The notes under the pieces: generated by a model
Database searches by the model: none
What the model was told of the DNA's origin: nothing
What the model saw: only the letters and a program-made list of their open reading frames with translations
DNA from: an uncultured Flavobacteriales bacterium
Lineage (GTDB): Bacteria > Bacteroidota > Bacteroidia > AKYH767-A > 2013-40CM-41-45
Assembly (NCBI GenBank): GCA_964544885.1
Contig: CAZJDX010000004.1
Coordinates: 100,293-164,292, forward strand
Length of the DNA stretch: 64,000 nucleotides
Direction of reading: 5' to 3'
Made by a program: the position numbers and the translations under genes
Part shown: positions 28,953 to 46,557 of the stretch, piece by piece
How positions within the stretch are numbered: the stretch's first letter is position 1
How the letters are laid out: every line of letters starts with the position of its first letter

Positions 28953-29723
28953 TCAGAACCTGAGGTGTTTGACGGTGAGTCCGTTATTGATAAGTTCATT
29001 GAGTGAGGCAATACCGATCTTCAGGTGTATATTAACATACTGTGCCGTGACTTTTTTATCACTCTCCGCGGTTTTAACTCCTGTGGAAATCATCGGCTGA
29101 TCAGATACCAGCAGCAGTGCACCGGTTGGAATCTTATTGGCAAAACCTGCAATAAAGATGGTTGCCGTTTCCATATCAATGGCCATCGAGCGGGTCAGTT
29201 GCAGGTATTTCTTGAATTCTTTGTCGTGTTCCCAGACACGGCGATTGGTTGAAAATACGGAACCGGTCCAGTAATCCTTGTCATGATTTCTGATCGTGGT
29301 GGAGACGGCTTTTTGCAGGCTGAACGCCGGCAGCGCGGGTATTTCACTGGGGAGGTAGTCATTGGATGTACCTTCTCCCCTGATGGCCGCGATAGGGAGA
29401 ATAAGGTCCCCTACCTTATTCTTCTTTTTTAGTCCACCGCACTTGCCAAGGAACAGCGCCGCTTTGGGTGCTATGGCGGATAAAAGATCCATGATCAGGG
29501 CCGCGTTCGGACTGCCGATACCGAAATTAATAATGGTGATGCCATTGTGCGTGGCATTGGGCATCGGCTTGTCACTTCCATTCACAGGAACCTTGTGCCA
29601 TTCGGAAAATAAATTTACGTAGTGATTAAAATTCGTCAGAAGTATATACTTGCCGAAATCTTCCAGTTTGGTACCGGTGTATCTTGGAAGCCAGTTTTCT
29701 ACTATTTCTTTTTTATTGATCAT
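28953..29723 (-). CDS. Short-form AMP nucleosidase / purine-nucleoside-phosphorylase family 1 (PNP_UDP_1) enzyme
   Basis: 256 aa carrying the PNP_UDP_1 fold signatures (…GIGSPNAALIMDLL…, …AIDMETATIF…); it lacks the long regulatory N-domain of enterobacterial Amn. Confidence 0.7.
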   Translation of the reverse strand: MINKKEIVENWLPRYTGTKLEDFGKYILLTNFNHYVNLFSEWHKVPVNGSDKPMPNATHNGITIINFGIGSPNAALIMDLLSAIAPKAALFLGKCGGLKKKNKVGDLILPIAAIRGEGTSNDYLPSEIPALPAFSLQKAVSTTIRNHDKDYWTGSVFSTNRRVWEHDKEFKKYLQLTRSMAIDMETATIFIAGFANKIPTGALLLVSDQPMISTGVKTAESDKKVTAQYVNIHLKIGIASLNELINNGLTVKHLRF

Positions 29724-33913: not shown

Positions 33914-35641
33914 ATGTCATATAGCGCTGATCCGGTAAGTGCTCCGGAAAAATTGAAACGGAATTATGTTGAGGAGTCATTGAACCTGGATGACTGGTCA
34001 AAGCTTGAACCGCTTTATAAGGATCTTGAGCAGAGAGTGCTGAATTCTCCTGATGATCTCCGGAAATGGCTGACCGACCTGAGTGAGCTGGAATCAGTTA
34101 TCTCGGAACATGCAGGATGGTTGTATATAAGAATGACATGCGATACGATGGATGCAGAGAAGAGCAAGGCTTATACACATTTCGTTGAGGAGATAAATCC
34201 GAAGATCGAGCCTTATAACGACCGCTTGAACAGAAAACTGCTTGCCTGTCCTCATGTGAAGAGTTTGCCGGCATCTTACCGCTTGTTCCTTAAACAGGTT
34301 GAGAATTCGATCCGGATTTTCAGAGAGGAAAACATTCCTCTGGAGGCTGAGATGACAGTCAAGGAGCAGAAGTATGGAGAGCTTTCAGGTGCCATGACCG
34401 TTGAGATGGGAGGGAAGGTACTCACCCTGCAGCAGGCATCTAATTTTCTCAGGGATCCTGACAGACGCGTACGTGAAGCGGTTTACGGAAAAGTCAGTGC
34501 AAGAAGATTACAGGACAGGGAAAACTTTGATTCGCTTTTCAATGAACTTGTGTCGCTTCGTGATCAGGTGGGAAGAAACGCGGGATTCCGGGATTACCGC
34601 GACTATATTTTCGTTGAGCTCGACCGTTTTGACTATACCTCCGATGACTGCCTCAGATTTCATGAATCCGTCCGTAAGGTAGTCGTGCCGGTGCTTGATG
34701 AAATGATGTCTTCGCGCCGGGCTGCGATGAAGCTGGAAATCCTGAAGCCCTGGGATACCGAAGTGGATGAACTGGGCAGGCCAGACCTCAAGCCTTTCAC
34801 TGACGGGAAGGAACTGATGGTCAAAACCATTTCATGCTTCAAGGCTATCCATCCTTATTTCGCGGAAGTTGCTTCGACGCTTCAGTCAATGAATTATACG
34901 GATCTCGACAGCCGTATCGGCAAAGCGCCTGGTGGGTATAATTATCCTCTCTATGAAAGTGGTGTGCCATTCATCTTCATGAATTCAAGCGGATCCCTGA
35001 GAGATGTGGTGACCATGGTTCACGAGGGTGGGCATGCGATCCACTCCATGCTCACACGGGACCTGGAGTTCATCGCGTTCAAGGAACTGCCTTCTGAAAT
35101 AGCCGAACTTGCCTCCATGAGTATGGAACTGATCTCGATGGAGCACTGGGAACATTTTTTCTCAGATCCCGAAGATCTCCGGAGGGCAAAGCGTGAGCAA
35201 CTCGAAGGTGTATTGGAAACACTTCCCTGGATCGCCTGCATTGATTCATTCCAGCATTGGTTGTATACACACCCAACGCATAGCATACAGGAAAGAACGG
35301 AAGCCTGGAAACAGATCTATCATTCCTTCAGTTCAGGCATCATAGACTGGTCAGGGAATCAGGCGGAACTGGAAACGCTTTGGCAAAAACAGTTGCATTT
35401 GTTTGAAGTGCCGTTTTATTACATTGAATATGGCATCGCGCAGTTGGGCGCCATAGCGGTATGGCGAAACTATAAGAAAGATCCGGAGACGGCCGTAAAA
35501 AGGTATATGGATGCCCTGAGTCTGGGTTATTCCAGATCCATTCCGGAGGTCTATGAAACCGCCGGAATACGCTTCGATTTTTCTGAAGAATACATCCGGG
35601 AACTGATTTCTTTCACGCGTGACGAACTCTCAAAAGTGTAA
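33914..35641 (+). CDS. pepF: M3-family oligoendopeptidase (PepF-like)
   Basis: 575 aa with the HExxH zinc-binding motif (VHEGGHAIHS), a downstream Glu, and overall M3B architecture. Confidence 0.88.
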   Translation: MSYSADPVSAPEKLKRNYVEESLNLDDWSKLEPLYKDLEQRVLNSPDDLRKWLTDLSELESVISEHAGWLYIRMTCDTMDAEKSKAYTHFVEEINPKIEPYNDRLNRKLLACPHVKSLPASYRLFLKQVENSIRIFREENIPLEAEMTVKEQKYGELSGAMTVEMGGKVLTLQQASNFLRDPDRRVREAVYGKVSARRLQDRENFDSLFNELVSLRDQVGRNAGFRDYRDYIFVELDRFDYTSDDCLRFHESVRKVVVPVLDEMMSSRRAAMKLEILKPWDTEVDELGRPDLKPFTDGKELMVKTISCFKAIHPYFAEVASTLQSMNYTDLDSRIGKAPGGYNYPLYESGVPFIFMNSSGSLRDVVTMVHEGGHAIHSMLTRDLEFIAFKELPSEIAELASMSMELISMEHWEHFFSDPEDLRRAKREQLEGVLETLPWIACIDSFQHWLYTHPTHSIQERTEAWKQIYHSFSSGIIDWSGNQAELETLWQKQLHLFEVPFYYIEYGIAQLGAIAVWRNYKKDPETAVKRYMDALSLGYSRSIPEVYETAGIRFDFSEEYIRELISFTRDELSKV

Positions 35642-35927
35642 GATTTTATCGTCTTTTTTTTACTCGTTTTGACGAATTCCTCAATTCCGGGTTTCCCATT
35701 GAGAATTAATGGTAAAGAACTTGCCTTAGACTTAAAATTTCGATGTGTCATTAATTTCCTGTGATGGAGAGTTCATTCCATTGCCTCAGGAATTGTTTTT
35801 CCGCTTCTCTGGGTGAAATTCCGGGACGGTTCAGGATGTAATGAAAAGCCCCATTTTTCAATCAATCAGGCGCATTTAACCCAAACCCGGAGCGCATGCT
35901 TAGCATATAAGGAATCGCACTAATTGT

Positions 35928-38900
35928 GTGCATACCTTGGCTAAAATTACAAATCAATCTCAGCGAAAAGTTTCGGATGAGGGCCGGAAGATCCTGTATA
36001 GGCTGCTGCTCTTCGCCGTAAGCATAATCTATGCCCTGGTATTTATTCTGGACTATCTGTTGCAATTACAGTTTACTTTTTTCCTGCTGCTCAGTCTCTT
36101 CGGATTTGTCATTCTCACTTTGCTTTACATGTGGTTCAGGGTTTCAGTTGTGGAACCTGTTGAAGCGACGGAAGCAGCAGAGGCTGAACCGGAAAGTTCC
36201 CCGGAAAAATTTCAGGATGCTCAGTTTCTCGTAAACATGCTCACCGGCCTTACCATTGATTGTACTGAGGCCGCCTGTTCATTGTTTGAAGCTGACAGCG
36301 TTTCAGAACTCAGCGGCATAGACCTGACAGGACTGATGGCGGTTAAATGGAGTGTGGATGAGAATACGCTGATCCGCAGACAACTTCAGCAAACCAATAA
36401 GGCAAGCGCGATAGGAACCTATGTAAGTCTGAAGGGAAGAGTTTTCAAAGGACTGATGCAGGCATCGCGCCTGAGCGGTACGGAAGAAAAAATCCTCGCC
36501 GTCAGGATAACGGACTTATCCAATCTGCCTGAAAGCATAACTTCTACGGCGCGTGCGGAAACAGAAGCCATTGAACGTGATCATACGTCCCGTCTGCTCT
36601 TCGAAGAAGGTATTATACCAATTGCCTTTGTGGGAATTAACTACAAGTTTGAGCAGGTGAACAAGGCTTTCTGTGATTTGCTGGGCTATTCAAAGGAAGA
36701 ACTGAAGCAGTTAACCGTGCTGGATATTGTGTTTCCGGATGACAAGGTTCAGGAACGGAAAAATCTGTCTCTGGTATTCAGTGGCGAAAGTCCGGTGAGT
36801 AAAAAGGAGAAAAGATTTGTACGTCGTAACGGAGATGTGATCTGGGTCAATACCTCTTCGACACTGGTGAGAAATGAGAGAAACCATCCCGGTTTTGTTT
36901 TGACGATGGCCGAAAATATCACCCGCCGTAAGCGGATCGAATACAGCACTCATGCAAAAAAGGATAAGCTCAGCAGTTTACTGGAGAATGCGGAATACTC
37001 CATTATATCGGTTGACAGACATTGCACTATCCTTCTGATCAATTCAAAGTTATGCGACATCTTGTTTTCACTTACGGGTATAGTTGTGGAAACGGGTTAC
37101 AATGTGATGGACGTATTGCCCGGTTCATTCCGGGAAGAGTTTGCTGAGCTGCATCGCCGCGCCTTCACCGGTGAGCATTTTGTGCATGAAAAGAAGATTG
37201 TGGTTTCCGGAAGCGCTGTTGATATTGAACTTGTATTTACCCCTGTTACGGATGAAAATGGCAAGGTGTTGAGTGTTTCCGTCTTTGGCCATAATATTAC
37301 GGAGCGCAAGAAATTGGAAGAAGAGCTTGTCAGACAGAAAACGGAAGCGGAATCTGCCACCGCAGCCAAGTCCGGCTTTCTTGCAACCATGAGTCATGAG
37401 ATCAGAACTCCGCTCAATGGCGTTATAGGAATGGGAAGATTACTGAGCGATACACAACTGACGCCAAAGCAACAGGATTATGTAGATTCGATGTTGCTGA
37501 GCGGTGAAGCTTTGCTTTCCGTGATCAATGATATCCTTGACTACTCCAAAATCGAATCAGCGAAGATGGAACTGGAGGAAAAGCCGTTCGCCGTCCGCAG
37601 ATGCATTGAGGAGACCTTTGACCTGCTTGCTGCCAGGGCAATTGAGAAAAAACTCTCGCTGCAATACAGTATAGCACGCGATGTGCCTACCTATATCATA
37701 GGAGATATTGTCCGACTGCGGCAGATTCTTATGAACCTGGTTGGCAATGCCATCAAATTCACACCGGCGGGAAAAATTACCGTCAGGGTAAACACAGTGA
37801 GTCGGGAAAACGAAAATTATGAACTCCTGTTCTCCGTGAAGGATACCGGTATCGGAATTCAGAAAGACAAGATTGGTAAGCTTTTCCAGAGCTATAGTCA
37901 GGCTGAAAAGAGTACGGCGGGCACTTATGGAGGTACTGGTCTTGGACTGATGATCTGTAAAAATCTGGTGAACCTGATGGAAGGAAAGATCTGGGTGGAA
38001 AGCGAGGCCGGAATGGGATCCGATTTCCTCTTTACTATCAAGACGAGGAAAGCTTCAAGTTCGGCGGTTCCCGAGCAGGTCCGCACCGGTTCGAACCGGC
38101 TGGTGAATTCTCATGTCTTGCTGATCGCTGATGATAAGTCCGAGGCAGACATCTATTATAATTATTTTAAAAGATGGAGCATGATCCCGCGGATTGAGTA
38201 TGGTATACAGGCAGGCCTGGATCTGATCCGTGAACATCCGGAATATAGCCTTGTTCTTATCGATGCCCAGATGACGAGCACAAAACCGCTGGAGATTGCC
38301 GGTCAGTTGCGTCGTCTTCGTCCCCAGGATGAGTTGCCGATCATTCTTTTCAACGCGGATAAGGGAAATGAAATTTTCTATGATTATACCGGAGATCTGG
38401 TGTCTGCTGTGATTCCGGGCAATGTGGACCGGTCAAAGGTGCTTGATATTCTGATCGGGGTATTCTCCGTTGAGGATCATCAACGAACACAGCATGAAGC
38501 CGGATTAAAAAGCATGACTTCAAGGCTGGCAGATGAGTATCCGCTTAGAATACTTATCGCGGAGGACAACATGATAAATCAAAAGCTGGTTCAGAATATT
38601 TTTGAAGGACTCGGTTACAAGCCGGAGATAGTATCCAATGGTCTTCAGGTAATTGAAAAGCTTAAGTCTGCCGATTTTGATCTTATTTTCATGGATATTC
38701 AGATGCCGGAAATGGATGGACTCGAAACGACACGCTTCATCATGCAGAAGATTGAAGCTTCCAGGAGGCCGGTGATTGTAGCCATGACCGCTTTTGCCCT
38801 TGAAGGTGATAAAGCAAAGTGCATAGAGGCTGGAATGAACGATTATATAAGCAAACCGTTCATGGTGGAGGAGATTGTCGAGAAAATAAAAAGGTGGTCC

Positions 38901-39323
38901 CAACCCCGAACAAATCCATCTTCAGGAAGTATAACAACACCAGACATGGAACTAATTCAGAAACAGGCAATGCTTGACGAAAAAGTGTTGAACCGGCTGC
39001 GTGACATGGCAGCCAGCGCCGACATGGATTTCTTCGGAGAGGTCATGCGGATGTTCATACAACAGGGACGCGAGATAATTGATGATGTGGAAAAATTATG
39101 TCTCAACCGGGAATGGGAAAAGATGAGCCAACAGGCTCATAAGCTCAAAGGTTCTTCCTTGAATATCGGTGCTAATATGCTGGCGGAAACCTGCCGGATG
39201 ATTGAGATAAAAGGTAAGGAATCTGAGTCTCAGGATTGTGTTTCCCTGACGAAGCGTCTTCGCACAGATTTCGAAGAAACGGTAAAGCGGATCCTGGAAG
39301 TGACCGGTCTGAAGGAAGATTGA
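35928..39323 (+). CDS. Hybrid sensor histidine kinase carrying a full phosphorelay in one polypeptide: N-terminal TM segments, PAS/PAC x2-3, HisKA, HATPase_c, a degenerate pseudo-receiver, a canonical REC, and a C-terminal Hpt domain
   Basis: H-box (ATMSHEIRTPLNGVIGM), N/G1/G2 boxes (LVGNAIKFT…, GGTGLGLMICKNL), REC (ILIAEDNMINQK…DLIFMDIQMPEMDG…K) and Hpt (…AHKLKGSSLNIGA). Confidence 0.9.
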   Translation: MHTLAKITNQSQRKVSDEGRKILYRLLLFAVSIIYALVFILDYLLQLQFTFFLLLSLFGFVILTLLYMWFRVSVVEPVEATEAAEAEPESSPEKFQDAQFLVNMLTGLTIDCTEAACSLFEADSVSELSGIDLTGLMAVKWSVDENTLIRRQLQQTNKASAIGTYVSLKGRVFKGLMQASRLSGTEEKILAVRITDLSNLPESITSTARAETEAIERDHTSRLLFEEGIIPIAFVGINYKFEQVNKAFCDLLGYSKEELKQLTVLDIVFPDDKVQERKNLSLVFSGESPVSKKEKRFVRRNGDVIWVNTSSTLVRNERNHPGFVLTMAENITRRKRIEYSTHAKKDKLSSLLENAEYSIISVDRHCTILLINSKLCDILFSLTGIVVETGYNVMDVLPGSFREEFAELHRRAFTGEHFVHEKKIVVSGSAVDIELVFTPVTDENGKVLSVSVFGHNITERKKLEEELVRQKTEAESATAAKSGFLATMSHEIRTPLNGVIGMGRLLSDTQLTPKQQDYVDSMLLSGEALLSVINDILDYSKIESAKMELEEKPFAVRRCIEETFDLLAARAIEKKLSLQYSIARDVPTYIIGDIVRLRQILMNLVGNAIKFTPAGKITVRVNTVSRENENYELLFSVKDTGIGIQKDKIGKLFQSYSQAEKSTAGTYGGTGLGLMICKNLVNLMEGKIWVESEAGMGSDFLFTIKTRKASSSAVPEQVRTGSNRLVNSHVLLIADDKSEADIYYNYFKRWSMIPRIEYGIQAGLDLIREHPEYSLVLIDAQMTSTKPLEIAGQLRRLRPQDELPIILFNADKGNEIFYDYTGDLVSAVIPGNVDRSKVLDILIGVFSVEDHQRTQHEAGLKSMTSRLADEYPLRILIAEDNMINQKLVQNIFEGLGYKPEIVSNGLQVIEKLKSADFDLIFMDIQMPEMDGLETTRFIMQKIEASRRPVIVAMTAFALEGDKAKCIEAGMNDYISKPFMVEEIVEKIKRWSQPRTNPSSGSITTPDMELIQKQAMLDEKVLNRLRDMAASADMDFFGEVMRMFIQQGREIIDDVEKLCLNREWEKMSQQAHKLKGSSLNIGANMLAETCRMIEIKGKESESQDCVSLTKRLRTDFEETVKRILEVTGLKED

Positions 39324-39352
39324 TTCTACCGGGGGCGTCAAACTGAGATTCC

Positions 39353-40369
39353 TTAAATCAGGTTGACTTCCATTTCCATCAGTACACCGAACTTTTCATT
39401 CACACTATCCTGTACTTTACGTGCATGTGTAAGCAATTCCTTTCCTTTTGCTCCTCCGTAATTAACAAGTACCAGAGCCTGTTTATGGTGCATCCCGACT
39501 CTCCCTTCGATCTTTCCTTTCCAGCCACATTGTTCAATTAACCAACCGGCTGCAAGTTTCATCTTGTGGTTGACGGTTTTATAAGCGACTATGTCAGGGT
39601 GCTTTTTCCGAAGTTCTTCAAAGACGGACTCATCGATCTCCGGATTCTTAAAAAAACTCCCTGCGTTTCCGAACTCTGCAGGATCCGGTAATTTGCTGCG
39701 GCGTATATTAATGACAGCCCGGCTCACATCTCTTATATCAGGCTTCGTAACACCCATCGCCATTAATTCCTGATTTATGGCACCATAACTCGTATTGAGT
39801 ACGGGATTTTTACTCAGCCTGAAACTTACCGAGGCGATCAGATACCTGTTCCTTGCCTCGTGCTTGAAGATACTGTCACGGTAGGCAAAGCCGCACTCAT
39901 CATGCAAAAATGTCCTCAGCCCGTCATCCTGCAGATCTACGGCTTCCAAAGAGTGAAAACTGTCTTTCATTTCCACGCCGTAGGCGCCGATATTCTGGAT
40001 AGGAGATGCCCCCACGCAGCCGGGTATGAGGGATAAATTCTCCAGTCCCCCCAGGCCATTATCAATACTGAACATCACCAGGTCATGCCAGACCTCGCCT
40101 GCTCCGGCTTCTACGATGGCATGGTCAGAATCTTCCCTGACAATTTTAATCCCTTTGATCACATTATGGATCACCAGACCGGGAAAATCTCCTGTCAGCA
40201 GAATATTGCTACCGCCTCCCAATACGAGCCTGGGTAACTGGCGGTACTCGGGCAGGAGCAGCAGAGAACGGACTTCCTCCGGATTATGTACTCTTGTATA
40301 AAAAGCAGTTTTGCATTCAACACCCAGGGTGTTCAGGTGGAGTAAGGAATAATTTCTGAGGATCTTCAT
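39353..40369 (-). CDS. murB: UDP-N-acetylenolpyruvoylglucosamine reductase
   Basis: 338 aa; FAD-binding PCMH domain (…LVLGGGSNILL…) plus the MurB C-terminal domain. Confidence 0.92.
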   Translation of the reverse strand: MKILRNYSLLHLNTLGVECKTAFYTRVHNPEEVRSLLLLPEYRQLPRLVLGGGSNILLTGDFPGLVIHNVIKGIKIVREDSDHAIVEAGAGEVWHDLVMFSIDNGLGGLENLSLIPGCVGASPIQNIGAYGVEMKDSFHSLEAVDLQDDGLRTFLHDECGFAYRDSIFKHEARNRYLIASVSFRLSKNPVLNTSYGAINQELMAMGVTKPDIRDVSRAVINIRRSKLPDPAEFGNAGSFFKNPEIDESVFEELRKKHPDIVAYKTVNHKMKLAAGWLIEQCGWKGKIEGRVGMHHKQALVLVNYGGAKGKELLTHARKVQDSVNEKFGVLMEMEVNLI

Positions 40370-40588
40370 ATAATCGGAAAAGTGAAATTACATGCTCAGA
40401 ACTATCAAAATTTATCTCCGGATCTTTCTTTTAAACCGAATTACTCACAAGGTAAAATCATCATTTCACCAAGCAGGTACCGGTATGGACTGAATAGATT
40501 TGAAGGGCGGTGTGAGAGGCTTTATTTTGCAGGCTCATGGTTTAGTTTTTGGTTAAACAACCTGGATGTGCCTTGGGTTAAGCACAGG

Positions 40589-40618
40589 CAGCGGTCTCCG
40601 GACCGCTGTTTTTTTTTT
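40589..40618 (+). terminator. Strong + strand intrinsic terminator (8-bp stem CAGCGGUC/GACCGCUG, UCCG loop, U10 tail) with no protein-coding gene upstream of it on the + strand. An orphan terminator, possibly the 3' end of an sRNA.
   Basis: Read directly: cagcggtctccggaccgctgtttttttttt. The U-run lies only on the + strand side. The flanking genes murB and the OMP gene are both on the minus strand. Confidence 0.5.
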
Positions 40619-40619
40619 C

Positions 40620-41219
40620 TCAAAATTTTATCATCAGTGCCACACCTATATTCGCGCCCTCTAACAATAGTTCATAATCGCTTTTATTGCCGGAATTATC
40701 TTCGATTTCGCCATTCTTATACGTTAACGAATTATAGGCGGCATGTACATTGAATCCTATATGTTCTCCCGGGAAGAAATTAGCCCCAAGCACTGCCTGT
40801 AAATGTCCGCCGGTGGCATTAAACTCTCCCAGGTCGATCTTGTTTTTATAATTGAATTTCGAAAGGCCGTATTTGATGCCAAGCTGCATATTGAAAAAGC
40901 TGGATCTGAGAAAGTGATAGTTCAGCAGCAAACTGATATCGGTATTTGAAGCGGATGTTGAATCCTTATCACTTGCATATTTGTTCAGTCCGGCCTGCAA
41001 TCCTATTCCGATGTTATTGGTCAGACCGTATTCAATGCCAATGGGAATGATCCTGCTGACGGCATTATCCGTATTTTTTATTTCAGCGACCGGATCAAAT
41101 CCCTCGGTATCGTAAATGCCGAGGTCAATGCCTGCGGAAAGAATGAAATCACCTCTTTCAAAGCTTTGGGCATTGGAAATAAATGGCAATAAAATCAGGA
41201 GAAGCAGAATTCGTTTCAT
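40620..41219 (-). CDS. Small outer-membrane beta-barrel protein (OmpW/OmpA-like porin family)
   Basis: Signal peptide (MKRILLLLILLPFISNAQS), alternating amphipathic beta-strand pattern, a C-terminal Phe (…ALMIKF); 199 aa. Confidence 0.7.
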   Translation of the reverse strand: MKRILLLLILLPFISNAQSFERGDFILSAGIDLGIYDTEGFDPVAEIKNTDNAVSRIIPIGIEYGLTNNIGIGLQAGLNKYASDKDSTSASNTDISLLLNYHFLRSSFFNMQLGIKYGLSKFNYKNKIDLGEFNATGGHLQAVLGANFFPGEHIGFNVHAAYNSLTYKNGEIEDNSGNKSDYELLLEGANIGVALMIKF

Positions 41220-41318
41220 AAATGTTGGAGATTGAATGCTATAATTTTACAAGGAAGCGGTTAAAATTATTCTGATATACCTTTAGTTCATACCTTCACG
41301 CCGTAAATAAATGTTTAC

Positions 41319-41894
41319 ATGAATAAAACGGAAATTATCAAAGGAAATTTTACCGAAGCGGCCGAGCTTCTCAACAACTTTATTTCCTCCGCGGATAACC
41401 TGAGCAAGATAGCAAAGGCGGCGGAAATCATGTCTGAAGCCCTGAAAAAGGGAAATACGATCATCTCTTGTGGTAATGGAGGCAGCATGTGTGACGCCAT
41501 GCATTTTGCCGAAGAACTCAGTGGCCGTTTTCGTGAAAACCGCAAGGCGCTGGCTGCCGTCTCGATCTCGGATCCTTCTCATATCACCTGCGTGGCCAAT
41601 GATTACGGTTTCGATCAGGTGTTCTCGAGGTATATTCAGGCTGTGGGAAAGCAAGGGGATGTATTGCTGGCCATCAGTACGAGCGGGAATTCAAAGAATG
41701 TTCTGAATGCCATCAGTTCAGCCCGGGAGAAAAAAATGCATGTCGTCGGACTAACGGGAAAGAATGGAGGTAAGATGGCGGATCTTTGCGATGTTGAGAT
41801 CAGGGCTCCGCATTCTGAATACGCAGACCGGGCGCAGGAAATACACATTAAAGTGATTCATTCCCTGATTCAGGTTATCGAATCCGGTTTGTGA
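41319..41894 (+). CDS. gmhA: SIS-domain phosphoheptose isomerase (GmhA/DiaA family)
   Basis: 191 aa; SIS-fold motifs (…ISCGNGGSMCDAMHFAEEL…, …LLAISTSGNSKNV…) are characteristic of GmhA (sedoheptulose-7-phosphate isomerase). Confidence 0.75.
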   Translation: MNKTEIIKGNFTEAAELLNNFISSADNLSKIAKAAEIMSEALKKGNTIISCGNGGSMCDAMHFAEELSGRFRENRKALAAVSISDPSHITCVANDYGFDQVFSRYIQAVGKQGDVLLAISTSGNSKNVLNAISSAREKKMHVVGLTGKNGGKMADLCDVEIRAPHSEYADRAQEIHIKVIHSLIQVIESGL

Positions 41895-42038
41895 AAATAA
41901 TTTGAGCGCATATATTAATATATGCATGAAGTTAGATACAATAATCGGGCTTTAATACCGGCCTGATTTCATTCATCACAAGAGTATTATTCTGAAAAAA
42001 AATGACGCCTCGCGTCCTGAAATCGTATTGCCTGTAGT

Positions 42039-43577
42039 ATGCTGGTAAAAACTTATGGAAGCGCTGTTTACGGAGTACACGCCACCACCATTACGGTCGA
42101 GGTCAACCTGAGCAGCGGGGTCAATTTCATCCTTGTCGGATTGCCCGACAGTGCCGTGAAGGAAAGTCAGAAGCGAATAGTTGCCGCTCTTAATAATTGC
42201 GGCTATAAGTATCCTAAAAGAGAGATTACCGTGAATATGGCACCCGCGGATGTACGCAAGGAAGGTTCCGCCTATGACCTTACCATAGCGGTTGGGATAT
42301 TGGCCGCTTCCGCCCAGTTGCAGCAGGAGGAGCTGGATAAGTACATCATCATGGGAGAGCTCTCACTGGATGGCGGACTTCAACCAATCAGAGGGGTTCT
42401 TCCAATCGCTATTCAGGCAAGGGACGAGGGTTTTAAAGGTTTTATTCTCCCTATGCAGAATGCGAAGGAGGCAGCCATTGTGAACGACCTGAATATATAT
42501 GGTGTTGAAAATATTTCGGAGGTGCTTGATTTTTTTAACGGCATCAGGGAGTTGCAAACTGTTAAAGTGGATGCGGTGAGTATTTTCCGGGAAAGCCAGG
42601 GTAGGTCTGAATTTGATTTCTCGGATGTAAAGGGGCAGGAGAATATCAAAAGAGCCATGGAGGTTGCCGCCGCCGGAGGGCACAACATTATTCTGATCGG
42701 TCCGCCCGGTGCCGGAAAGACCATGCTTGCCAAGAGGCTGCCAACAATTTTGCCCCCACTAACGCTGGAGGAAGCGCTCGAAACAACTAAGATCCATTCA
42801 GTGGCTGGTAAGCTGGGCAAGGAGTCATCCATGATCTCGGTTCGGCCCTTTCGCGCTCCGCATCACACCATCAGTGATGTGGCACTGGTTGGAGGAGGTA
42901 CCTTTCCTCAGCCCGGAGAGATTTCGTTAGCACATCACGGAGTATTGTTTCTGGACGAACTGCCTGAGTTTAAACGAACGGTGCTGGAAGTGATGCGTCA
43001 GCCACTTGAGGAAAGAACGGTTACGATTTCGCGGGCGAAGTTTTCCATAGAGTACCCGGCCAGCTTCATGCTGGTCAGTTCCATGAATCCATGCCCTTGC
43101 GGTTTCTATAATCATCCTGAGAAGGATTGTGTATGTGGAGTAGGTGTTGTACAGAAATACCTCAATAAAATTTCCGGACCCTTGCTCGACCGGATCGATA
43201 TTCATGTGGAAGTAACTCCGGTTCCATTCAGGGAGCTGACCAGGGACAGAAAGTCAGAGAGAAGTGAAGCTATCCGGCAAAGGGTAGTCTCGGCGCGACA
43301 GTTGCAGGCGGAACGTTTCTCCGGTCATGAAGGCGTGTATTGCAATGCACAAATGAATTCAAGGATGCTGCAGGAAATCTGTCAGATCACTGAAGAAGGG
43401 AAACAATTACTTAAAACCGCTATGGAACGATTGGGATTATCAGCCAGAGCCTACGACAGGATATTAAAGGTCTCCCGGACGATTGCTGACCTGCAATCAA
43501 GCGCGGATATTAAAACAGAACACCTGGCAGAAGCGATACAGTACCGGAGCCTGGACAGAGAAGGATGGGCGGGCTAA
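42039..43577 (+). CDS. comM: YifB/ComM-family Mg-chelatase-like AAA+ ATPase
   Basis: N-terminal Lon-protease-like domain (MLVKTYGSAVYGVHATTITVEV…), Walker A (LIGPPGAGKTMLAKRL), Walker B/sensor region (GVLFLDELPEF) and a C-terminal ChlI-like domain; 512 aa. Confidence 0.92.
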   Translation: MLVKTYGSAVYGVHATTITVEVNLSSGVNFILVGLPDSAVKESQKRIVAALNNCGYKYPKREITVNMAPADVRKEGSAYDLTIAVGILAASAQLQQEELDKYIIMGELSLDGGLQPIRGVLPIAIQARDEGFKGFILPMQNAKEAAIVNDLNIYGVENISEVLDFFNGIRELQTVKVDAVSIFRESQGRSEFDFSDVKGQENIKRAMEVAAAGGHNIILIGPPGAGKTMLAKRLPTILPPLTLEEALETTKIHSVAGKLGKESSMISVRPFRAPHHTISDVALVGGGTFPQPGEISLAHHGVLFLDELPEFKRTVLEVMRQPLEERTVTISRAKFSIEYPASFMLVSSMNPCPCGFYNHPEKDCVCGVGVVQKYLNKISGPLLDRIDIHVEVTPVPFRELTRDRKSERSEAIRQRVVSARQLQAERFSGHEGVYCNAQMNSRMLQEICQITEEGKQLLKTAMERLGLSARAYDRILKVSRTIADLQSSADIKTEHLAEAIQYRSLDREGWAG

Positions 43578-43702
43578 GGTTGCGGAAGGGCGGAAACCGA
43601 AGTTTTCCGGAGCCGGGATCAGGTTTTTGAGTGAGTTATAAAGTGTTGAATAAGCAGAGAGTTAAAACACAAAAATGCATAGAGAAAGATGTTTTATTTA
43701 TC

Positions 43703-44449
43703 CTACCAGTTTTTTTCGAGGTAGGCTAAAAATGGTTCTTTGCGCCGGGTGGAAACTTCAATTTGTTTGTTATCCGAAAGTGTGACGAAACCACCTTTTC
43801 CCCGATTGTAGCTTTTAATAAAGCGGGTATTTATAAGGTGTGAATTATGTACCCTGAAGAAACCGTGATCCGTGAGTAATTCCTCAAATTCTTTTAAAGT
43901 TTTGGCAACCATAATTTTGGATTGATCCTTTAAAAAAATGTGAGTGTAGTTTATTTCGCTTTCAAGTCTTACAATTTCATCTGTATTCAGATAGGTATAA
44001 CCGGTTAAAGTCGGTACCGCTATCCGTTTGGATGTATGATGAATATTATGAATCAGTGTTTCAAATTTCCTGGTTTTTTCAATTTCAGAAATCCTTTTGC
44101 TAAGTTTTCCGACAGCGCCGGAGAGGTCTCCCGCATCCACAGGTTTCATCAGATAATCAATGGCGCTAAATCTGAATGCCTGAACTGCATACTTCTCAAA
44201 GGCAGTAGTAAAGATTACCTCAAAGTTTATTTCTTTAAACTGCTGAAGCAGATCAAACCCGGTTCCGTCGCTCATAGAAACGTCCAAAAAAATAAGTTCG
44301 GGTTTCAGTCTTTCAATACCATTTTTTGCGTCTTTAACATTTTTAAAACTATCCATCAGCAGAATGCTCTGCTTACAGTTCTCTTCAAGCAACCTGCTGA
44401 GACGGTCAATGCAGTGTTGTTCATCGTCTATGATTATTGTTCGTATCAT
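43703..44449 (-). CDS. LytTR-family two-component response regulator (REC + LytTR DNA-binding domain)
   Basis: REC domain (IIDDE…FLDVSMSDGTGFDLL…) followed by a LytTR domain (…IVRLESEINYTHIF…FRVHNSHLIN…). Confidence 0.9.
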   Translation of the reverse strand: MIRTIIIDDEQHCIDRLSRLLEENCKQSILLMDSFKNVKDAKNGIERLKPELIFLDVSMSDGTGFDLLQQFKEINFEVIFTTAFEKYAVQAFRFSAIDYLMKPVDAGDLSGAVGKLSKRISEIEKTRKFETLIHNIHHTSKRIAVPTLTGYTYLNTDEIVRLESEINYTHIFLKDQSKIMVAKTLKEFEELLTDHGFFRVHNSHLINTRFIKSYNRGKGGFVTLSDNKQIEVSTRRKEPFLAYLEKNW

Positions 44450-44460
44450 TATCCGGAATA

Positions 44461-46557
44461 TTAAAAGTTGCTGATGAGCGGAAGTTTTACTTCTACACGC
44501 AATCCTTCAGTTAGATTGGAAAAATTTATTTCTGCAGCAGATTTTTTAATTTTGTTAAGAATATCAATTCGTGCCTGGGTTATTTTCATGCCCATTGAAG
44601 ATTTTTCATGAGCGGAGGTGGTTTGCGAAAAATTTCCTAAACCGGGACCATTATCATCCACCCTGCATTTTATCATATTTCCTTCCCGCACAATACTTAT
44701 GTTGATCCTGCCTTCCGTTTTTTCCTTATTGGCAATACCATGCCAAATGCTGTTTTCAACAAAAGGTTGCAGAATCAGAGGAGGGATCATCGTATTTTCA
44801 GTATCAATTTCAGAATCTACGTATATGGTATAGCTGAATTTATTTTGAAGCCGCATTGCCTCCAGTTGAATGTAATTTTCTAAGGCTTTCAAGTCTTTAC
44901 TTAATGTAATTTCTTTCGATTCTGAATTTTCCAGGATCTGGCGGATAAGGGTTGCAAATTTTACAAGGTATGTATCTGCGCTCTTGGTGTCATTTTTATT
45001 TATATAATCGCTTATTGAATTCAAAGAATTAAAAATAAAATGCGGATTCATTTGCGCTCGCAGGGCTTTCATCTCCGTACTGGTTACCTCTGCATTGAAT
45101 TCAGCTTCTTTCTTTTCAAACATGGCATCGCGACGTTTTTTGTACGACACAAAAATACCTGTTCCGGCCAGTAAGATGAGCATGCTGCCTGCAATGGAAT
45201 AATTACGGATCATTTGTTCTTTTTCGATTTGTGCACTTGAAATAGCCTGTTGCTTATCGCTTTCAGCCATAATCAAAGCTTCTTTTTTATCAAATCGAAA
45301 CTGCGTTTCCATTTTAATGATATCCGTTTGCTTATCAATATTGAAAACACTGTCTTTCAGGCTGGAATATTGCATTGCGAATTCATAAGCCTGTTGATAG
45401 TCCTTTTTCCTGTAGAATAGTGTACTCAGGCTTTCGGTTATTTCCGCTTGCAGAGCAACATTACCTGTATTTCTTAAAATTTCCAGTGCATTTTGTTTAA
45501 GACGTATTGCTTTTGTGGATGAATCCTGAATTTTGAATTTTCTTAGCAAGGATAATGGTGCCTTTGAATAAATAGTTCCGATTTCATGCAGCATAAAGGC
45601 AGTGTTGATTTTGTCACCCAGCTCATCGAATACCTTATATGCTTTAGTTAAGTAATCCAAAGCATTCTCAAGCTCAAGCCGGTTGCTTAGTAGTATTCCA
45701 ATGTTAGCCATGTTGCTGGCTGTTCCGAACCGGTAATTTGCTCTTTGATTTATGCTTAAAGCGTTCTGATAACTTTTCAAGGCATTCTCAGCCTCATTTA
45801 TACTCTCGTAAATATTTCCTAAATTGTTAAAGCATTTGGCAAGATTAATATCATCTTCGGTCCTTGTGTAAATTTTAACTGCATTTTGCTGATATTCAAT
45901 TGCCTTTTTAAAATTTCCGGTGTTTTTAAAGAGGATTCCGATATTGGAATAAGTATTTGCAATATTATTACTGTCAGAGGCATTTTCATATAATTTCAAG
46001 GAACGTAAGTAATATTCAAGAGCTGTTTCATAGTCTGACATATTCATATATACAACTCCGATATTGCTCAAGATAGCCGCCTGAAGAACGGAATTTCCCA
46101 GTTCAACCTGAAGAGCAAAGGCAGTTTGATAACTTTTCAATGCTGATGAATAATCCGACAAGTTAGAGTGGCAGATTCCTGTATTTGTCGCGATACTCGC
46201 ACATGCCTGTAGTCTGCCATTCTTTTCGTTAATCGAATACGATATTTTGTAATATTCAATGGCCAGCGAGTCTTTTCCTGCCTTAGCATAATTGTATGCT
46301 TTAGCAAAATATGCCGTTGCCAGCTTTGGTTCATGTTTGATTTTTGTTGTCAAACTAATGGATGAATCGGCATAGAGTATACCGGTCTCCGGATCAAAGT
46401 CAGCATAACTCAACGAAATGTTGTTCAGGACAGTGGCACGGACGGAATCTGACTGGGTATGCTCCTTGAGTAGTAGGAGAAGTGAATCAATTTCTGCCTG
46501 ATTCGCAAACGTGTAATTCATAAGAAAAAGACAGAGAATAATAATTAAATTTTTCAT
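44461..46557 (-). CDS. Sensor histidine kinase of LytS/YehU type (His_kinase 5TM-less form) with a periplasmic/extracytoplasmic TPR-repeat sensor region. Operon partner of the LytTR regulator.
   Basis: Signal peptide, about 8 TPR-like repeats (repeated A..Y…A..Y hydrophobic patterns), one TM, then the His_kinase motif (NPHFIFNSLNSISDYI) and HATPase_c (…ISIVREGNMIKCRVDDNGPG…). The stop/start spacing to the response regulator is 12 nt. Confidence 0.88.
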   Translation of the reverse strand: MKNLIIILCLFLMNYTFANQAEIDSLLLLLKEHTQSDSVRATVLNNISLSYADFDPETGILYADSSISLTTKIKHEPKLATAYFAKAYNYAKAGKDSLAIEYYKISYSINEKNGRLQACASIATNTGICHSNLSDYSSALKSYQTAFALQVELGNSVLQAAILSNIGVVYMNMSDYETALEYYLRSLKLYENASDSNNIANTYSNIGILFKNTGNFKKAIEYQQNAVKIYTRTEDDINLAKCFNNLGNIYESINEAENALKSYQNALSINQRANYRFGTASNMANIGILLSNRLELENALDYLTKAYKVFDELGDKINTAFMLHEIGTIYSKAPLSLLRKFKIQDSSTKAIRLKQNALEILRNTGNVALQAEITESLSTLFYRKKDYQQAYEFAMQYSSLKDSVFNIDKQTDIIKMETQFRFDKKEALIMAESDKQQAISSAQIEKEQMIRNYSIAGSMLILLAGTGIFVSYKKRRDAMFEKKEAEFNAEVTSTEMKALRAQMNPHFIFNSLNSISDYINKNDTKSADTYLVKFATLIRQILENSESKEITLSKDLKALENYIQLEAMRLQNKFSYTIYVDSEIDTENTMIPPLILQPFVENSIWHGIANKEKTEGRINISIVREGNMIKCRVDDNGPGLGNFSQTTSAHEKSSMGMKITQARIDILNKIKKSAAEINFSNLTEGLRVEVKLPLISNF

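Follow-up and report, generated by a model that had tools for sequence, protein, structure and literature searches.

Which transcript, if any, ends at an intrinsic terminator that follows no recognizable gene? In the window analysed here (a 64-kb stretch of DNA from an uncultured Flavobacteriales bacterium), such a terminator lies on the plus strand between two minus-strand genes: murB and a gene for an outer-membrane β-barrel protein (hereafter OMP). The biology of small RNAs (sRNAs) in Bacteroidota is young, and nearly all of the known examples come from gut Bacteroides and one Flavobacterium. To our knowledge, translation initiation in this phylum is not based on Shine–Dalgarno sequences. 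A preliminary description of the window proposed that the orphan terminator marks a non-coding RNA that arises from the murB–OMP spacer, and this proposal is supported by the conservation of a discrete block, a predicted promoter, compensatory changes in the stems and the lack of a conserved open reading frame (ORF). On the basis of these sequence comparisons, the locus very probably encodes a real, separately transcribed sRNA at positions 40535–40618.

A single strict terminator in the window

The hairpin occupies 40589–40618 on the plus strand and consists of a GC-rich 8-bp stem, a UCCG loop and U10: CAGCGGTC (40589–40596), TCCG (40597–40600), GACCGCTG (40601–40608) and T10 (40609–40618). 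It is followed by C40619 and then by TCA (40620–40622), the reverse complement of the OMP stop codon. In a lenient terminator scan, the site ranked first in the interval 35000–45000, with 11 pairs when an AGG/UUU extension is included; however, that scan has no discriminating power (11 sites compared with 9.6 expected), and a strict test was used instead. When the stem had to be a perfect 8 bp including 6 or more G–C pairs, the loop 3–8 nt and the T-run at least 8 residues, this hairpin was the single site in the 64-kb window, both strands included. Across 200 dinucleotide shuffles of the window, the same criteria gave a mean of 0.005 sites, and 1 of the 200 shuffles contained any site at all. 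Both the letters and the strict test therefore bear out the earlier reading of a textbook terminator. Slightly looser criteria yielded four canonical terminators in the window, two of which follow genes in the correct orientation, so the orientation of a hairpin and its U-tract is informative in this genome. Elsewhere in the window, a strong terminator-like hairpin on the plus strand at 29396–29430 (12-bp stem, T6) lies inside or antisense to the minus-strand ORF 28953–29723, and may be another orphan terminator.

The nearest plus-strand gene upstream, a hybrid histidine kinase ORF, ends at 39323, as previously noted. Between it and the hairpin, on the opposite strand, lies murB (UDP-N-acetylmuramate dehydrogenase; 39353–40369, minus strand; NCBIfam NF000755, 443.6 bits against a cut-off of 277). 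On the other side, the OMP gene (OMP_b-brl, PF13505; 40620–41219, minus strand) is convergent with the predicted sRNA and encodes a protein of 199 amino acids with a signal-peptide-like N terminus and a C-terminal Phe; its stop codon abuts the U-run.

Conservation and distribution of the element

The comparison set comprised the window and 12 further distinct genomes, in which murB is 56–88% identical to that of the window. These genomes were drawn from OMP homologues (59–95% identity), murB homologues (62–63%) and two JGI/NCBI metagenome loci, L073 and L074. Among 185,579 species-representative genomes, the closest murB is 57% identical (Emticicia, ‘Bacteroidetes bacterium UKL13-3’), which places the window in an uncultured lineage of Bacteroidota, and the exact proteins of the window are present on Logan metagenome contigs.

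Conservation of the spacer and its hairpin in relatives had been suggested as a check, and the alignment reveals a sharply bounded block, UCAUGGUUUAGUUUUUGGUUAAACAACC...GUGCnUUGGGUUAAGCAC...CAGCGGUCUYCGGACCGCUG-U(n), which corresponds to 40535–40618 of the window and is conserved in all 12 further genomes. The identity of this block to the window is 90–95%, compared with 64–69% for the coding DNA of OMP, murB and gmhA, 37–39% for murB third codon positions (which are saturated), 55–62% for the remainder of the sRNA-bearing spacer and 62–68% for the gmhA–OMP spacer. In L124, the most distant OMP-bearing relative, the block retains 76% identity compared with 61–64% for coding DNA, and the 20-mer GGTTTAGTTTTTGGTTAAAC is exact even in L074, the murB of which is 56% identical to that of the window.

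Covariance model R1 places the predicted RNA, approximately 83 nt in length, on the plus strand at 40534–40617 with 109.7 bits, and it detects the element at the same position and in the same orientation in 12 of the 12 other genomes (33–111 bits). In around 99 other Bacteroidota murB loci, neither R1 nor a broader model, R2, detected a credible homologue; the best R2 matches there (E values of 0.06–0.9) were driven by the terminator hairpin or lay within coding sequence. In the data searched, the RNA family thus appears to be restricted to one clade of uncultured wastewater and soil Bacteroidota. A mobile or phage origin was considered and rejected: viral contigs contained no exact match, blastn against plasmids found nothing, and the R1 scan found a single copy of the RNA in the window.

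The order gmhA, OMP, a spacer of 240–490 nt and murB is found in 11 of the 13 genomes (gmhA was identified with NF001628, 289.6 bits against a cut-off of 265). The sole constant neighbour of the RNA is murB, which is divergent and lies 148–171 nt from the 5′ end of the RNA in all 13. The OMP gene is absent from L073, in which the RNA is located between murB and gmhA, with gmhA around 150 nt downstream on the same strand. L074 also has no convergent OMP gene; its downstream neighbour is an unrelated large ORF that encodes a signal-peptide-like N terminus.

Several other features of the neighbourhood were recorded. G-rich repeats of the GGGACGA(A/G)GGGAC type occur downstream of the terminator on the sRNA strand in L126 (2030–2250) and L073 (2110–2230), and L126 additionally carries a tandem array of approximately 28 nt (AATCAGCAATCCTAAATCCTCAATCAGA) there; the window has neither. 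Between the gmhA stop (41894) and the start of a yifB/comM-like gene (42039), a conserved hairpin at 41995–42016 lies around 25 nt upstream of the YifB/ComM-like gene. Its sequence is GACGCCTCGCGTC in the window and GGTGCnnTGCGCC in relatives, and it appears to covary. An A-run precedes it, the conserved CTGAAAnnnTATTG follows it and the scan flagged it as minus-strand terminator-like; it may represent a leader structure or some other small element. The yifB/comM-like gene is itself truncated in some relatives (L122, 1–1713; L124 and L125, 705–1760), where it adjoins a serine recombinase gene (Resolvase/Recombinase) in L122 and an HTH gene in L124, which suggests that integrative elements target comM in these relatives. 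comM is a known target of integrative elements in other bacteria.

Promoter and predicted start site

A promoter is predicted on the plus strand at 40499–40530, comprising a −33 element (TTTG, 40499–40502), a 20-nt variable spacer and the −7 box TATTTTGC (40523–40530). The consensus for the primary sigma factor of Bacteroidota is TTTG at −33 and TAnnTTTG at −7 (PMC7366714), and in Flavobacterium psychrophilum both the TAnnTTTG box and a TAnnTTGY variant (‘SM5’) are located at −12 to −5 (PMC9723704). Placing the box of the window at −12 to −5 puts the predicted +1 at T40535, where the invariant part of the alignment begins. All 12 genomes tabulated have TTG and TAnnTT.. separated by exactly 20 nucleotides of variable sequence. 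Seven genomes have a −7 box of the TAnnTTGY type, three have TAnnTTTG or TAnnTTTA and two have TAnnTTCA; the box ends 4–5 nt 5′ of UCAUGG in 10 of the 12 genomes and 7–8 nt from it in L073 and L126.

A start in the murB–OMP spacer is what the preliminary description had envisaged, but its estimate of 150–220 nt for the transcript is too long: the conserved unit spans approximately 83 nt from around 40535, and the rest of the interval that it had flagged (40370–40534) is promoter and regulatory DNA. Within this DNA, between the divergent murB and sRNA promoters, lies a conserved block at 40441–40473 that consists of TTACTCACA (40441–40449), 15 nt and TTCACCAAG (40465–40473). In the 11 genomes aligned, TTACTCACA is invariant and T[TC][AG]CCAA(G), 21–22 nt further on, is nearly so. 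The composite TTACTCACA...TTCACCAAG motif is unique in the window, with 0 occurrences expected, and contains a TCAC[AC]AAG-like direct repeat whose copies are spaced by two turns of the helix. The block may be a site for a regulator shared by the murB and sRNA promoters. As a marker of a wider regulon, TTACTCACA was rejected, as it is no commoner than chance elsewhere in the window. On the minus strand, TAATTTCA (40383–40390) is a TAnnTT(C)G/A box located 12–15 nt upstream of the murB start, and this murB-proximal box (CGAAAnTA on the plus strand) is conserved in most relatives. We infer that it is the −7 element of murB itself, which would give murB a very short 5′ untranslated region.

Structure of the predicted RNA

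The RNA begins with a U-rich 5′ domain, UCAUGGUUUAGUUUUUGGUUAAACAACC (40535–40562, plus strand), the first 26 or so nucleotides of which are nearly invariant. Columns T4–A29 are invariant in 9 genomes, and across 12 genomes only 4 positions of the domain vary, each once or twice. Folded alone (−4 to −8 kcal/mol), the domain forms a weak, imperfect hairpin, SL1, in which 40539–40542 pair with 40559–40562 and 40545–40548 pair with 40555–40558, leaving a mostly unpaired loop (UUGGUU); it is thus predicted to be partly foldable and not strictly single-stranded. The pair changes seen in SL1 are solely from G–C to G·U and from U–A to U·G. SL1 can be closed in L074, L126, L127 and L073 by pairing of the very first nucleotides (CUCA or UUC) with UGAG or GAA further along the RNA. 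We propose that the 5′ domain is a target-recognition or ligand-binding module.

A second hairpin, SL2 (40568–40585, plus strand), has a GUGC/GCAC stem and the loop motif UUGGGUUAA, and is supported by both folding and covariation. Its fifth pair covaries, being A–U in L114 and L115 and U–A in L116 and L120, and the sequence of its stem has been replaced in L073 and L124. Ten of 12 genomes retain the loop motif, G[GA]GUUAAG, which L126 and L127 have lost. We also considered UUGGGUUAAG (40575–40584) of SL2 as a mimic of 16S rRNA, because it resembles the Escherichia coli 16S rRNA segment ‘...GUUGGGUUAAGUCCC’. Bacteroidota 16S rRNA differs from that of E. coli at this segment, and L126 and L127 lack the motif; the resemblance was judged to be a coincidence.

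In the terminator stem, five pairs are changed on both sides across homologues, and the T-run is 3′ of the hairpin in every genome; L074, L073, L126 and L127 have terminator stems that differ in sequence. The 3′ end of the RNA is predicted to lie somewhere within the U-run. When the whole structure is aligned, pairing is possible in 95.7% of cells and double changes are seen at 7 pairs, compared with 1.1 ± 0.9 in shuffles. These counts are supportive rather than probabilistic because the sequences had been aligned to fit the model and are not independent of one another; the phylogenetic relatedness of the homologues means that covariation counts overstate the number of independent events. Slid controls of the same alignment lower the paired fraction to 26–48%, and folding z-scores range from −3.4 to −4.7.

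The plus strand is indicated by the one-sided T-run, the orientation of the promoter and four independent G·U-compatible substitutions, which favour this strand because they would be A·C on the other. Pair counts separate the strands only weakly (229 of 239 cells on the plus strand and 223 on the minus strand). Taken together, the alignments show a structurally coherent predicted unit, from promoter to terminator, that appears to be under strong purifying selection.

Coding potential and relation to known families

We sought conserved ORFs on both strands across the homologues and found none that is kept in frame and length; every frame is broken in several genomes. An antisense ORF of 25 amino acids starts at an invariant CC-ATG-A and shrinks to 2–3 codons in five genomes. 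Inside the RNA, a UUG-started sense frame of 10 codons lacks its stop in L114 and L115 and is disrupted by a frameshift in L120, and internal frames are cut to 2–5 codons in several genomes. Both of the ORFs cited in the preliminary description exist, but neither sustains the very small peptide that it offered as an alternative to a non-coding RNA. The 33-codon ORF (40392–40493) lies 5′ of the predicted start site in unconserved sequence, and the 123-amino-acid ORF (40382–40753) runs across the terminator and continues antisense to the OMP gene, and is almost certainly spurious, as the description had supposed. A further ORF of 32 amino acids (40566–40664) was also rejected, as it is not conserved.

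A search with Rfam 15 (4,227 models), a comparison that had likewise been suggested, gave no gathering-level match in the whole window. Between 40200 and 40800 the sole matches were chance-level ones to snoRNA models (E ≥ 2.5), and six homologous loci gave no match at E ≤ 0.1. The core sequence had no match in the full texts of the papers searched. In silico, the unit has the features of a canonical intergenic sRNA: its own promoter and transcription start site (conserved boxes and a predicted +1), a Rho-independent 3′ terminator, no conserved coding potential and a conserved, accessible seed (a 5′ domain of 26–28 nt with a weak fold and a mostly unpaired loop). The classification of the predicted RNA as an undescribed sRNA family with the architecture of a canonical intergenic sRNA, rather than as a new kind of system, is well supported.

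Proposed function and alternative explanations

We lean towards the reading that this is a stand-alone, non-coding sRNA that pairs in trans with mRNAs through its conserved 5′ domain; the pairing mechanism, considered by itself, is evenly poised. The RNA would be transcribed from T40535 and released at the U-run, and its 5′ domain would pair with one or more mRNAs encoded elsewhere. The likeliest pairing site would be a translation initiation region, which in Bacteroidota is A-rich and has no Shine–Dalgarno sequence (PMC6847099). Pairing at these regions is favoured because they are A-rich, because the 5′ domain is U-rich and because there is a precedent in GibS, the best-studied sRNA of Bacteroidota. 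GibS has a defined transcription start site and ends at an intrinsic terminator, and its extended 5′ seed, which is conserved and unstructured, pairs with target mRNAs across their start codons (PMC7366714). The 5′ domain of the present RNA starts with (C)UCAUGG, and because CAU within it is complementary to AUG, such pairing would block initiation. In the 64-kb window, we found no near-complementary site besides the antisense of the RNA gene itself; the strongest duplexes from a sliding search (−25 to −28 kcal/mol) are rich in G·U pairs and lie inside, or antisense to, coding regions. In the initiation regions of comM, gmhA, OMP and murB from 8 genomes, pairing was no better than the local background.

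The long invariant stretch and the repeated loop motif make a protein-binding RNA the main rival to pairing in trans. Around 26 consecutive invariant nucleotides exceed what most seeds need, and a protein-binding site would fit too. In one form of this explanation, which we regard as unlikely, the RNA is a decoy or sponge that titrates an RNA-binding protein, as CsrB and RsmZ do for CsrA. Stem and loop of the 5′ domain are invariant alike, SL1 shows no covariation, a G(G/A)GUUAA-like motif occurs in two hairpin loops (UUGGUUAA in SL1 and UGGGUUAA in SL2) and neither the window nor the initiation regions of the neighbours yielded an mRNA target. However, the lack of a target within 64 kb carries little weight, L126 and L127 have lost the second motif although the RNA is otherwise kept, two sites are few compared with the many that known sponges carry, and the locus offers no candidate for a protein partner; we know of no Hfq, ProQ or CsrA in Bacteroidota. 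It is rather improbable that the RNA is, in a broader sense, a ligand, decoy or cofactor of an RNA-binding protein, with the invariant 5′ hairpin as the recognition element and co-regulation with murB through TTACTCACA...TTCACCAAG. If the RNA were such a ligand, peptidoglycan synthesis would be linked to post-transcriptional control of the envelope.

The remaining explanations dispense with a trans-acting RNA. That the element acts in cis on an OMP–murB unit, the hairpin being the terminator or 3′ stabilizer of OMP and the plus-strand RNA an antisense insulator against read-through, is distinctly improbable, even though the OMP stop codon abuts the hairpin, the minus strand of the window has no other terminator-like site between OMP and murB, and the sRNA would be complementary over its whole length to any transcript that ran on from OMP into murB. 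Read on the minus strand, the hairpin has A10 before it and CCUGUGCUU after it, and hence no U-tract; in relatives, 30–240 nt of unconserved sequence separate it from the OMP stop; and the 5′ domain, not the hairpin, is the most conserved part. Furthermore, L073 and L074 keep the RNA, its promoter and its terminator without a convergent OMP gene, so the hairpin is not primarily the terminator of OMP but is tied to the RNA, in agreement with the view first taken of it. Nor does the hairpin look like a bidirectional terminator, which would have a U-rich tract on its 3′ side whichever strand is read and would depend on the convergent gene. In the window, the hairpin probably stops or stabilizes the convergent OMP transcript as a side effect; because there is no other terminator between OMP and murB, it may serve OMP transcripts as a roadblock or 3′ stabilizer. 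A DNA-level regulatory region for murB, similar to an operator or enhancer and without a discrete RNA, would fit the constant position of the element around 150–170 bp upstream of murB and the presence of other conserved motifs in the same spacer (TTACTCACA and TTCACCAAG), but it is very unlikely, as it leaves unexplained the compensatory hairpin with its one-sided T-run, the −33 and −7 boxes that point away from murB at a fixed spacing and the G·U-compatible substitutions. Barely credible is a very small protein gene or a 5′ leader or attenuator of a downstream plus-strand gene. Short frames do exist (the ORFs of 33 and 32 amino acids and the UUG-started frame), and in L073 gmhA follows on the same strand; however, the longest of these frames lies upstream of the predicted start and is unconserved, the internal frames decay as described above, and the variable base of GUGCnUUGG covaries with its pairing partner, as predicted for RNA structure. 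Nor is the arrangement that of a riboswitch or cis-acting leader, as the RNA is followed by a gene on the other strand in 11 of the 13 genomes, and gmhA on the same strand is found in L073 alone.

Significance of the locus

The locus defines, in an uncultured lineage from wastewater and soil, a clean candidate sRNA family with a promoter, start, seed-like domain and terminator that are all predictable from sequence and a 5′ module that has stayed conserved over divergences that saturate synonymous sites. The constant association of the RNA gene with murB, and its gmhA and OMP neighbours, suggest a link to the control of the cell envelope, and we speculate that the neighbourhood hints at a role in cell-envelope homeostasis. 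The combination of an orphan terminator, a contrast in conservation and a phylum-specific promoter motif can be used to find sRNAs in lineages that are represented only by metagenomes.

Comparison with known small RNAs

GibS (BTnc035) of Bacteroides thetaiotaomicron is, like the RNA described here, an intergenic Bacteroidota sRNA with its own transcription start site and an intrinsic terminator (PMC7366714). The 5′ portion is highly conserved and weakly structured in both; in GibS, it is the seed that acts on the start codons of targets without Hfq or ProQ (PMC7366714). Neither their sequences nor Rfam linked the two RNAs, and the RNA of the window comes from a different, uncultured lineage. 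At around 83 nt it is also shorter than GibS, which is approximately 145 nt in length.

In Enterobacteriaceae, MicF (RF00033) is an sRNA of around 90 nt with a Rho-independent terminator that is divergent from ompC; its conserved 5′ end masks the initiation region of the ompF mRNA, which is encoded elsewhere. The likeness is that of a short, terminator-ended sRNA divergent from an envelope gene (ompC for MicF and murB here), without homology or an Rfam match. MicF depends on Hfq, which is not known from Bacteroidota.

Rfp18 and other ‘indep’ sRNAs of F. psychrophilum are likewise stand-alone RNAs with a transcription start site and an intrinsic terminator (PMC9723704). They are conserved beyond the species, have strong predicted structure and are preceded by TAnnTTTG or TAnnTTGY boxes at −12 to −5; the predicted pairing region of Rfp18 is its third stem-loop and not its 5′ end (PMC9723704). 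Rfp18 was compared with the present RNA by description, and no sequence relationship is apparent. The RNA described here combines a GibS-like design with a MicF-like genomic arrangement, and is the sequence kin of neither.
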